Source: an uncultured Candidatus Rokubacteria bacterium (lineage in GTDB: Bacteria; Methylomirabilota; Methylomirabilia; Rokubacteriales; CSP1-6). Taken from it: a DNA stretch of 64,000 bases. Shown piece after piece: positions 19,666 to 21,959 of this stretch. The notes beneath the pieces are model-generated. The model did not search any database. It was given only the letters and a program-made list of their open reading frames with translations, and was not told the DNA's origin. The position numbers were made by a program, and so were the translations under genes. The stretch covers positions 448,001-512,000 of the forward strand of contig CAVYTA010000006.1 in the NCBI GenBank assembly GCA_963771355.1, read 5' to 3'. Positions within the stretch are counted from its first letter, which is position 1. Every line of letters starts with the position of its first letter.

Positions 19666-19742
19666 GAAGAGATGAGACGTAGCCTTTTAAGTTACTAGAA
19701 ACATGATCAAAATGGATACTTCATGTGGTCTCGATCCCGGCG

Positions 19743-19772
19743 TTTCACATCTGCACGGTCGCGGTGTCTCAT
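19743..19772 (+). promoter_or_regulatory. Putative ECF promoter, copy 1 (TTTCAC-N13-CGGTGTCTCAT)
   Basis: Identical bipartite motif with identical spacing at 21317-21346; lies directly upstream of the ECF sigma gene. Confidence 0.7.
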
Positions 19773-19782
19773 GAGTAGAGTG

Positions 19783-20310
19783 ATGGCTGACGAGGCATTC
19801 GAGATCGTGGTGGCCGCCCACCACGCCGAGATACACCGGTACCTCGTGCGCGTGACTCGACGCCCGGGGGATGCCGATGATCTGTCTCAGGAGACCTTCA
19901 TCCGGGCCTTCCGTGCGCACTCGGCCTTGCCGGCAGGGTCGAATGTCCGCGCCTGGCTCTTCACCATCGCGACGAATCTGTGTCGAAACTACTGGCGCTC
20001 GGAGTCGCGGCGTCGCCGGGCTTACGAGGCCGCCGGCGAGACCGCGGCGCACCACGAAGAAGCCGAAGGGGAGGGCGCGATGGTCATGGAGCAGGCGAGT
20101 GAGGAGATCGGGCGCATCGTCGCCGCGCTGCCGCTCCGCCAGCGACTGGCCTTCACGCTCCGCAAGGTCCACGAGCTCGAGTACGAGGCCATCGGCCGGA
20201 GCCTCGACTGCTCTCCCGATACCGCGCGGGCGCATGTCTTCCAGGCGCTGCGCAAGATCCGACGCGGGCTCGATGCCCCGGCCGGGGCCCGCACGGAGTC
20301 CAAGCGATGA
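19783..20310 (+). CDS. ECF-type RNA polymerase sigma factor
   Basis: Region 2: DADDLSQETFIRAF...AWLFTIATNLCRN. Region 4: LPLRQRLAFTLR...YEAIGRSLDCSPDTARAHVFQALRKIR. Start GTG 19780 or ATG 19783. Confidence 0.93.
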   Translation: MADEAFEIVVAAHHAEIHRYLVRVTRRPGDADDLSQETFIRAFRAHSALPAGSNVRAWLFTIATNLCRNYWRSESRRRRAYEAAGETAAHHEEAEGEGAMVMEQASEEIGRIVAALPLRQRLAFTLRKVHELEYEAIGRSLDCSPDTARAHVFQALRKIRRGLDAPAGARTESKR

Positions 20311-21272
20311 CCAGAGAGCCCCGATCCTGTCGTGAGATCGAGCCGGACCTGATCGCGGTGGCGACCGCCGAGGCGCCGCCCGCCGCCGCCCGCCGCGTGG
20401 AGAGCCACGTGGCGGAGTGCGCGTCCTGCCGGAGCGAGCTCGCGCAGTATCAGACGGTCGACGGGCTCGTGACCGCGTACCGAGACACGCGCGCGCTCGA
20501 GGCCGACCCCACGCTGGCCCGCGCGCAGCTCGAGAGCCGGCTCGCGGACCTGCGCAGCCGCATCATGCGCTACGGCGTGTTCGACTCTCCGCTCGGGCCC
20601 ATCGCCATCGGCGTCTCGGAGCACGGGGTGTCCATGGTGGAGTACGTACGCCCGGCCGAGCGGACGGGCGGCGGGTTGGCGCGGCGGGCGGGCGGAGAAG
20701 CGGTGGAGGACCCCCGCCGGACGGAAGGGCTCTATCGCGAGCTGGCCGACTATCTCGACGGGCGGCGCACGCGGCTGGACTGGCCGCTCGATCTCCGGCG
20801 GACCCGGAGCGACTTCCAGCGGCGCGTCCTCGAGGCCACCGCGCGTCTTCCCTATGGGGCGGTGACCTCCTATGCGGGCATCGCGCGCGAGATCGGCGCG
20901 CCGCGCGCGACCCGCGCGGTGGCCCAGGCGCTCCGCCACAATCCACTCCCCATCGTGGTCCCGTGCCACCGCGTGATCGGCAGCAGCGGCGACCTCACCG
21001 GCTATGCGGGGACGCGCATCGGGCTCAAGCGAGATCTGCTGGCGGTGGAAGGCGTTCACACCATGCCCGGTCATGGCGACTTTCACATCGAGCGGCGCGC
21101 CGTCTACTACAAGTACCTCGATGGGGGTGAGTATTGCCTGCCGACCTGTGGTGGCATTCTCGAGAAGCCACTGGGTGACTTCACGGTATTCGGCTCGCGC
21201 GACCGCGCGGAAGCGGTGGGGCTCCAGCCCTGCACGGACTGCCGGCCCGATCTGCATCCGCTCCCCGCCTGA
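20307..21272 (+). CDS. Fusion protein: zf-HC2 anti-sigma domain + methylated-DNA-protein-cysteine methyltransferase (Ogt/MGMT) + C-terminal Ada-type zinc domain
   Basis: C...HVAECASC (HxxxCxxC); SPLGPI, FQRRVL, PYG, RAVAQAL, PCHRV active site; YCLPTC...GLQPCTDCRP. ATGA overlap with the sigma gene. Confidence 0.88.
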   Translation: MTREPRSCREIEPDLIAVATAEAPPAAARRVESHVAECASCRSELAQYQTVDGLVTAYRDTRALEADPTLARAQLESRLADLRSRIMRYGVFDSPLGPIAIGVSEHGVSMVEYVRPAERTGGGLARRAGGEAVEDPRRTEGLYRELADYLDGRRTRLDWPLDLRRTRSDFQRRVLEATARLPYGAVTSYAGIAREIGAPRATRAVAQALRHNPLPIVVPCHRVIGSSGDLTGYAGTRIGLKRDLLAVEGVHTMPGHGDFHIERRAVYYKYLDGGEYCLPTCGGILEKPLGDFTVFGSRDRAEAVGLQPCTDCRPDLHPLPA

Positions 21273-21374: not shown

Positions 21375-21785
21375 ATGCACATCATCGGGACACTCATCGT
21401 GGTGGCGATACCCCTGGTCGGAATCTTCGGACTCCTGTGGCTCAGCGAGCGCTGGCAGGCGCGCCGCGAGGTCGGGCGGCACCTCCAGATCGCGGTCACC
21501 GACGCGGTGCACGGGGCGCTCGGCGCGGTGGCGGCACCGGTAGTGACGCGGCGCCCGGGCGGCGGCTGGCGGATCCAGATGCGGGTCACGCCGGGCCGGT
21601 CCGATCTGGCCGCGGCGCTCGTGCGTGTGACGGAAGATGTGATGGACCGTGCGACGGGCGAGATGCGGCGCCCCTTCGAGATCGTCCTGCTCCCGACGGA
21701 GGGGATCGGCGCCGCCGGGCACGGTCCGCGCGCCCTGGGCCAACGCAGCAAGAGCGCCGCGCCGCTGGCCGCGGCCGCGCGCTGA
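21375..21785 (+). CDS. Hypothetical protein with N-terminal transmembrane helix
   Basis: AAAGGAG RBS; hydrophobic MHIIGTLIVVAIPLVGIFGLLWL segment. Confidence 0.7.
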   Translation: MHIIGTLIVVAIPLVGIFGLLWLSERWQARREVGRHLQIAVTDAVHGALGAVAAPVVTRRPGGGWRIQMRVTPGRSDLAAALVRVTEDVMDRATGEMRRPFEIVLLPTEGIGAAGHGPRALGQRSKSAAPLAAAAR

Positions 21786-21797
21786 GAGGAGGCCGCC

Positions 21798-21959
21798 ATG
21801 CTCAGCTACTACGCGCTGGAGAAAGTCGTGGAGATGCGGCTCGCCGAGCTTCGTGAGGAGGCGGCGCGGGCCCGGGCGGTGGCGTCTCCCGAGCCGGCTG
21901 CTCGGCCGGCTCCCGCCCGACCCCTTCGCTGGTTCCAGGTCCAGATCTTCGGTCGTTGA
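21798..21959 (+). CDS. Small hypothetical protein, 53 aa (MLSYYALEKVVEMRLAELREEAARAR...WFQVQIFGR)
   Basis: GAGAGGAGG RBS, ATG 21798, TGA 21957-21959; fills the gap between genes; below the ORF-track length cutoff. Confidence 0.65.
   Translation: MLSYYALEKVVEMRLAELREEAARARAVASPEPAARPAPARPLRWFQVQIFGR

Follow-up and report, generated by a model that had tools for sequence, protein, structure and literature searches.

In the window analysed here, that is, the whole 64,000-nucleotide stretch at positions 448,001 to 512,000 of contig CAVYTA010000006.1 from an uncultured Candidatus Rokubacteria bacterium, a gene encoding a sigma factor of the extracytoplasmic function (ECF) type (19780..20310, + strand) is followed by a gene for a 321-residue protein (20307..21272, +; hereafter designated the fusion), which was delimited by open reading frame (ORF) calling, Pfam searches, an alignment of 64 orthologues, and an AlphaFold2 model. 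The fusion joins, in this order, a CHCC-type zinc anti-sigma (ZAS) domain (20307..20570, +), a complete O6-alkylguanine alkyltransferase (MGMT) with RNase-like and DNA-binding subdomains (20565..21056, +), and an Ada-type Cys4 zinc domain (21093..21260, +). Its ATG at 20307 overlaps the stop codon of the sigma gene as ATGA, in agreement with the translational coupling claimed in an earlier note on this DNA, which had read the fusion as an anti-sigma factor carrying alkylation-repair domains. The sigma factor comprises sigma2 and sigma4 (Pfam Sigma70_r2 and r4_2, TIGR02937 above its cut-off, and the orthologue alignment) and likely starts at GTG 19780 or ATG 19783; starts at 19723 and 19771 were dismissed as lying upstream of, or inside, the predicted promoter described below. 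Its residues Cys143, His14, and His130 are invariant in 64/64 orthologues.

The central MGMT matched Pfam Methyltransf_1N (PF02870) at residues 87–163 and DNA_binding_1 (PF01035) at residues 169–250 (E 1.9e-29), and scored 98.5 bits with TIGR00589 against a cut-off of 46.4. The active site PCHRV is found at 20961–20975, where the earlier note had placed it, with the acceptor C220 of PCHR encoded by codon 20964–20966; Y189, R203, N212, PCHR, and E248 of the MGMT core are invariant in 64/64 orthologues and correspond to the active site and to the Tyr, Arg finger, Asn, and Glu that such alkyltransferases conserve. Both zinc domains narrowly missed their Pfam cut-offs in this copy, namely, zf-HC2 (residues 8–42; 22.0 against 22.2 bits) and Ada_Zn_binding (residues 274–315; 18.3 against 23 bits, a cut-off exceeded by many orthologues). 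Despite these scores, the two domains are, judging from the aligned sequences, not chance matches, because nine Cys and His residues (C8, H34, C38, C41, C220, C277, C281, C309, and C312) are invariant in all 64 orthologues and because the C-terminal profile matches N-Ada.

In the N-terminal domain, the HxxxCxxC reported earlier at 20406–20429 is indeed present as H34xxxC38xxC41, and C8 (20328–20330), which the earlier note overlooked, sits 26 residues before H34, giving the arrangement by which a ZAS motif is defined, that is, HxxxCxxC with a Cys or His 23–26 residues upstream (PMC4960319). A profile search of the PDB with this domain returned DdvA, RsiW, RsrA, and ChrR as weak matches (E 0.014–1.2) mixed among unrelated proteins. 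The AlphaFold2 model (predicted local distance difference test score [pLDDT] 85.8, predicted template-modelling score [pTM] 0.71) places four helices here, at residues 6–19, 25–37, 39–62, and 68–85, the last of which is predicted to continue directly into the first MGMT strand. Consistent with the earlier note, the fusion has neither a transmembrane helix (highest 19-residue hydropathy 0.92 here and at most 1.63 across the 64 orthologues) nor an AraC helix-turn-helix (HTH), for which no Pfam family matched at E ≤ 0.1 and NF011964 gave 83 bits against a cut-off of 345.

At the C-terminus, YCLPTC from 21132 and CTDC at 21231–21242 make up the C-x3-C...C-x2-C pattern noticed before. C277, C281, C309, and C312 align with C38, C42, C69, and C72 of Escherichia coli Ada (1adn), and the profile of this domain matches N-Ada (1adn) at E 1.9e-5 with the Cys residues in register; a match of the same profile to PsaD was dismissed, as none of the four Cys is present there. 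The folds of the two zinc domains are putative assignments from sequence profiles. The equivalents of R43 and R71 of Ada (positions 282 and 311) are Arg or Lys in 0/64 orthologues, and that of R45 (position 284) is non-basic in at least 63/64. Since R45 and R71 read the A-box promoter in E. coli Ada (PMC4437013), their loss fits a loss of promoter binding. The domain has a mean net charge of −1.3 across the 64 orthologues of the window's lineage, compared with +6 for its counterpart in this genome's paralogue and with values from +2 to +8 for all 25 loci of a second class described below. Thus, the earlier proposal that both methyl-acceptor modules are kept in permuted order holds for the intact MGMT and the four invariant Cys residues of the Ada-type domain, and does not extend to the basic residues R43, R45, and R71, which are missing.

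The arrangement is conserved among relatives. A protein search gave 2975 matches among 8000 scored candidates, and the best 120, which were inspected, are 58–92% identical to the fusion and almost all full length; the named ones belong to Methylomirabilota or Rokubacteria. Within the class, matches at E ≤ 1e-45 occur in 162 of 251 genomes, confined, besides the window's own genome, to three families (131/158, 19/21, and 11/21). From 166 class matches, 70 loci were examined (the 30 best and 40 chosen for spread). An ECF gene lies directly upstream of the fusion in 70/70, so that the synteny the earlier note had raised is general in this sample; the ZAS pattern and PCHR are both present in 67/67 loci with a callable start, and the strict Cys4 pattern in 65 of these 67, both exceptions still carrying four Cys. 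Moreover, the sigma and fusion genes overlap by 4 or 1 bases in 63 of the 64 orthologous loci in which both could be delimited. In this genome (99.8% complete), no full-length Ada_Zn domain was found, and four MGMT matches were obtained, namely, two fusions coupled to ECF genes and two short frames.

Binding of the fusion to the sigma factor was modelled by a complex prediction with sigma residues 1–165, the whole fusion, and two zinc ions, using our own alignments. The pair scored 0.73, compared with 0.19 for the best of three controls; the score mark, which 116 of 157 solved pairs but only 2 of 215 mismatched ones attained, is only a rough guide here, as alignments and ligand were supplied. 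The runs shared at least 86% of contacts, with a partner pLDDT of at least 83. Confident contacts were predicted for fusion residues 12–88 and 133–138 with both sigma2 and sigma4, and sigma binding is thus predicted to proceed through residues 12–88. Together with the synteny and the gene overlap, this model supports the anti-sigma role suggested in the earlier note, and we regard both this role and the promoter described next as well supported computationally.

Upstream of the sigma gene, TTTCAC (19743–19748, −35), a spacer of 14 nt, and GGTGTCTCA (19763–19771) form a predicted autoregulatory ECF promoter (P1; 19743..19771, +). As P1 ends only 8 nt before the GTG, the sigma–fusion mRNA is likely leaderless or nearly so, with a start site that we infer from this spacing. 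A motif scan revealed a second predicted promoter with the same TTTCAC-N14-GGTGTCTCA behind the fusion (P2; 21317..21345, +), and the consensus across relatives is TTTCAC-N14-GGKGTCTCA, located before the sigma gene and before the gene after the fusion. Indeed, TTTCAC-N14-GG[TG]GT precedes the sigma gene in 67/67 loci with enough upstream DNA, and 58 of 69 loci have a further site in the 1.3 kb that follow the fusion. The 14-nt spacer accounts for 137 sites across the 70 loci, compared with 0–1 at each of nine other spacers (10 to 19). On a genome scale, 96 sites were found across 30/30 genomes that carry the gene, where the reversed pattern gave 0 sites, and no site was found in 30/30 genomes of other families lacking a detected fusion, which are smaller and are kin. 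Among same-family genomes in which the fusion was not found, 5 of 10 have sites, one of which precedes a sigma gene and a fusion truncated by the contig end. Between 19500 and 22300, neither a sigma70-type promoter nor a + strand terminator was found. Contigs from RNA libraries (four runs of one study) cover parts of the operon and flanking genes, one beginning upstream of P2; they inform neither expression level nor start site and were not used as evidence. Given its bipartite form, its position, and the way it accompanies the system across genomes, the motif is likely to be what the window's sigma factor recognises.

P2 precedes a predicted target gene for a 136-residue protein with an N-terminal hydrophobic helix (21375..21785, +; hydropathy 2.71 at residues 3–21) and no Pfam family, for which tblastn found a homologue in 60 of 70 loci; its look-alikes in the Atlas are all unnamed, with Methylomirabilota as the most frequent taxon. 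Next to it lies a 53-residue small ORF (21798..21959, +) that resembles, by eye and unscored, peptides behind other copies of the promoter. Both protein types, the membrane-anchored one and the peptide, recur behind the promoter in many relatives, and neither matches a Pfam family. In this genome, a matrix built from the motif picked out both sites of the window as well as sites at two DinB-family genes, with scores of 38.5, 32.5, 32.2, and 19.4, the last lying below the training minimum of 22.4. The two DinB_2/MDMPI_N proteins behind these sites (L226:229-690 on contig C4 and L227:264-713 on contig C1) carry His46 and His135/His139, which we take to be the metal-binding pattern of the DinB superfamily.

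Of the 96 sites in the 30 genomes, 45 were assigned to the sigma–fusion operon and the other 51 were examined. Their first genes are DinB-family genes (15 sites in 14 genomes), DUF2652 (8), small peptides (5), ABM (3), SRPBCC (3), MFS (2), EamA/DMT (2), and Ogt (1), along with one homologue of the downstream membrane gene, one small hydrophobic peptide, and 10 unassigned genes. A separate alkyltransferase with intact PCHR follows 7 of 11 DinB_A genes, and this pair has probably been inherited, so that it does not stand for many independent events; in total, a second MGMT lies under the promoter in 8 operons from 7 of the 30 genomes, and the scan of same-family genomes added two more such operons. 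DUF2652, the second commonest predicted target (L160, L161, L193, L194, L196, L213, L216, and L221), also occurs after the ABM genes of L173 and L206. A universal-stress-protein-like gene, recognised by eye, is the first gene behind the promoter in L142, L143, L144, and L234, and adjoins the fusion in L142 and L143. In L182 and L219, the promoter stands before a TetR gene with a further ECF sigma gene behind it, and in L165 it immediately precedes an ECF-like gene; these cases give a hint of a sigma cascade.

More distant representatives also have ZAS-MGMT proteins, some of which include the Ada domain and some of which do not. In a GTDB sample of 80 listed loci, mostly ordinary MGMTs with three full-length proteins, which served only as a contrast between ZAS and ECF, 76 have more than 1.5 kb of upstream DNA; an ECF gene precedes 5/5 of the ZAS-bearing MGMTs compared with 7/71 of those without ZAS. 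Three of these five are from Rokubacteria and may come from genomes included in the counts above; the other two are from Gemmatimonadota and Chloroflexota. In the second class (Thermoanaerobaculia by its record), a three-domain query matched 41 of 121 genomes, 27 across full length, the 41 including one unpublished genome that was used in no other result; CHCC, PCHR, Cys4, and an upstream ECF gene were found in 25/25 of the best loci. In another phylum (201 genomes, 10 matches), two proteins have a ZAS and both lie behind an ECF gene, and eight lack it, two of them lying behind an ECF gene. ZAS-MGMT partners lacking the Ada domain also sit behind ECF genes (L013, L015/L273, and L278), and the five actinobacterial MGMT partners that were seen have no zinc motif.

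In two trees, the window's sigma factor clusters with sigmas from Chloroflexota, Gemmatimonadota, and Actinomycetota that are likewise linked to an MGMT (support 99/96 and 96/96), and the second-class sigmas and a paralogue sigma of this genome fall outside the clade; the trees contained 15 and 6 of the 64 orthologues and 8 of the 25 second-class sigmas, took only this genome's other ECFs as outgroup, and were midpoint-rooted. Tentatively, these relationships suggest that the fusion partner is paired with two ECF lineages. The paralogue lies outside the window on contig C5 (L003:668-2621), where another ECF gene and an MGMT-AdaZn gene overlap; the MGMT-AdaZn product has a short N-terminal extension and no ZAS, and an Oxygenase-NA (PF09859) gene comes after it. 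A motif unlike that of the window, TTCCAC...CCTCGCCCGTATACC, precedes this paralogue sigma and an MFS-like gene at C5:441246.

The domain content, the invariant ligands, the gene coupling, and the promoter motif with its co-occurrence are established at the level of sequence. From these we propose, with a probability of roughly 0.6, that the sigma factor and the fusion form a co-translated complex from which alkylation of C220 frees the sigma factor, which then makes unmodified partner together with repair and detoxification proteins. In this mechanism, the fusion, translated 1:1 with the sigma factor, would hold it inactive through the N-terminal ZAS domain, and alkyl transfer to C220 would loosen or destroy this grip, the release taking place, we infer, by conformational change or by proteolysis. 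Alkylated alkyltransferases are generally described as destabilised and degraded. Acting at the conserved promoter, the freed sigma factor would express its own operon along with a small number of genes with predicted roles in repair and detoxification. As fresh unalkylated partner would be translated along with the sigma factor, the loop would be self-limiting, and its output would track the amount of suicide enzyme spent. Alkylation is plausible as the trigger, the link to it made in the earlier note being in keeping with the intact MGMT and with the second MGMT in predicted target operons; C220 would be the main sensor, because the MGMT is the sole module that every form of the partner has, and a switch operated by methylation of the PCHR cysteine has a precedent in Caulobacter Cada2 (PMC10957082); the Ada-type Cys4 site may be a second, lineage-variable input.

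Several observations weigh against this mechanism. Neither the MGMT active-site subdomain nor the Ada domain contributes a residue to the confidently predicted interface, of which residues 133–138 are the sole part beyond the N-terminal domain, and the model therefore gives no direct path from C220 to the sigma factor. The complex score itself may reflect likeness to solved sigma/anti-sigma structures, since ECF–ZAS complexes have already been solved. The loci in which its sites were counted are also the source of the motif itself, the bare pattern in this genome alone gives 5 sites compared with 0–3 at other spacers, and the genomes compared are kin, so that the counts are not independent. 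As for the regulon, the promoter is absent from alkA, alkB, and ogt in this genome (with best scores of −8.6, −11.1, and −19.6) and also from its fourth MGMT-family gene, and among the first genes of the 51 off-operon sites there was no match to the AlkA of this genome or to the Oxygenase-NA query; most predicted targets look like proteins of small-molecule detoxification and not of DNA repair. A regulon of alkA, alkB, and ogt was dismissed for this genome, all three being without the promoter. Finally, canonical Ada occurs in 2 fusion-bearing genomes among the 61 searched, and a rule that the system replaces Ada was dismissed for this coexistence.

The detoxification-like targets bring in an alternative that we consider unlikely, though not negligible, in which the zinc-bound Cys residues of the CHCC ZAS or the charge-neutral Cys4 site are modified directly under electrophile or thiol stress to release the sigma factor, the MGMT being an effector carried along. 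DinB/S-transferase-like proteins are the commonest predicted targets, and all eight members of this superfamily in Bacillus subtilis are described as thiol transferases (PMC5815605); the DUF2652, ABM, SRPBCC, MFS, and EamA/DMT genes point the same way, whereas no thioredoxin-type gene was recognised among the first genes of the 51 sites, 10 of which are unassigned. The ZAS of the fusion is of the CHCC type, which is needed for oxidation-induced release in RsrA (PMC4960319), but the redox determinants of RsrA (E39, E40, L45, and E46, of which the acidic pair precedes C41 and the Leu-Glu pair follows C44; PMC3177212) are mostly missing: position 36 is Asp or Glu in 8/64 orthologues, and position 42 is Leu in 0/64 and Arg in 58/64. 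The lack of Arg or Lys at the R43 and R71 positions and the negative mean charge of the Ada domain would suit a thiol switch, yet R45 and R71 serve A-box binding in Ada, for which an anti-sigma factor has no need. Direct thiol modification also leaves unexplained why the MGMT is fused and invariant across several phyla, and why related ECFs have an MGMT partner with no zinc motif.

Sensing of alkylation by the Ada-type domain instead, with C277 as the C38 equivalent and the MGMT serving only for repair, would follow E. coli Ada, in which methylation of C38 is the switch (PMC4437013), and it agrees with the invariant Cys residues in register with N-Ada and with the basic domain of the second class. 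ZAS-MGMT partners that follow ECFs without any Ada domain, the loss of the basic surface in the window's lineage, and the lack of a confident contact between the Ada domain and the sigma factor in the predicted complex make this rather improbable. Least of all do we expect the fusion to be a packaging device, namely, an anti-sigma factor responding to an unrelated signal or to proteolysis with the repair domains as co-expressed passengers. Coupling of the acceptor sites to sigma binding has no direct support, and the coexistence with canonical Ada is in line with such a device; against it, the fusion has no membrane or other sensor domain, it stays whole next to what are, tentatively, two or more lineages of sigma factor, and helix 68–85 is predicted to run into the first MGMT strand.

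Collectively, we consider the locus to encode a real, conserved, and uncharacterised ECF system. If release by C220 alkylation is true, a cytoplasmic ECF system would gain a DNA-damage input, and the missing regulator would be named for two ECF groups listed as of 'unknown mechanism' or as TetR-regulated. It would also provide a case for how appended sensor domains break ZAS–sigma complexes, which is stated to be unknown in PMC4960319. The sigma factor, partner, and promoter fit in 1.6 kb, and the module could find use as an orthogonal biosensor of alkylation; moreover, the regulon as predicted suggests a role for unannotated families, namely, DinB-like proteins, DUF2652, and the small membrane protein.

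With regard to novelty, which the earlier note had suggested for the architecture, our literature searches found no paper on a ZAS-MGMT-AdaZn fusion, most subscription journals lying outside their coverage, whereas adjacency of ECF and MGMT genes is already on record for ECF122 and ECF203. These two groups have an MGMT gene at +1, are 100% actinobacterial, and are listed with no putative anti-sigma factor in the supplementary text of Casas-Pastor et al. 2021 (PMC7826278); the adjacency is repeated in a review (PMC8999054). The fusion likewise stands at +1 of its ECF gene; according to PMC7826278, ECF203 neighbourhoods also contain Ada_Zn_binding, and the predicted ECF122 promoter, CTCAC / CGTCTAC, resembles TTCAC / GTCTCA of the window. 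In the trees with their small outgroup, the window's sigma factor groups with MGMT-linked actinobacterial sigmas. Unlike ECF203, which is proposed to be TetR-regulated (PMC7826278), and unlike both groups in general, the window's system has at +1 a protein with a full CHCC ZAS and a C-terminal Ada domain, and its closest named relatives are Rokubacteria or Methylomirabilota.

The fusion resembles RsrA (CHCC), ChrR, RsiW, and DdvA in having HxxxCxxC with a Cys 26 residues upstream, a position behind an ECF gene, and a predicted four-helix N-terminal domain, and, like ChrR with its ZAS and cupin sensor, it is soluble and carries additional sequence with a possible sensing role; in contrast to all of these ZAS factors, its extra domains are DNA-repair enzymes. 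With E. coli Ada it shares both suicide methyl-acceptor modules, with the Cys residues in register, and likely autoregulation. It differs from the Ada order of N-Ada Cys4, AraC HTH, and MGMT in being permuted and lacking the AraC HTH, in having no equivalents of R43, R45, and R71, in a predicted regulon without alkA and alkB, which in E. coli belong to the Ada regulon together with aidB, and in its output, for which the prediction is that an alternative sigma factor is released and not that a promoter is bound. In Caulobacter Cada2, methylation of the PCHR cysteine can be a regulatory switch (Kamat et al. 2024, PMC10957082); Cada2 and the fusion both have an MGMT domain with this cysteine, but Cada2 acts as an activator that binds DNA and has B-box and RLHD motifs (PMC10957082), whereas the fusion has no such domain and would sequester a sigma factor instead. 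On balance, we slightly favour the view that this is a third bacterial adaptive-response architecture after Ada and Cada2, in which the suicide repair enzyme is itself the anti-sigma factor, which occurs with at least two ECF lineages in several phyla, and of which ECF122/ECF203 would represent the zinc-less form of the same switch.

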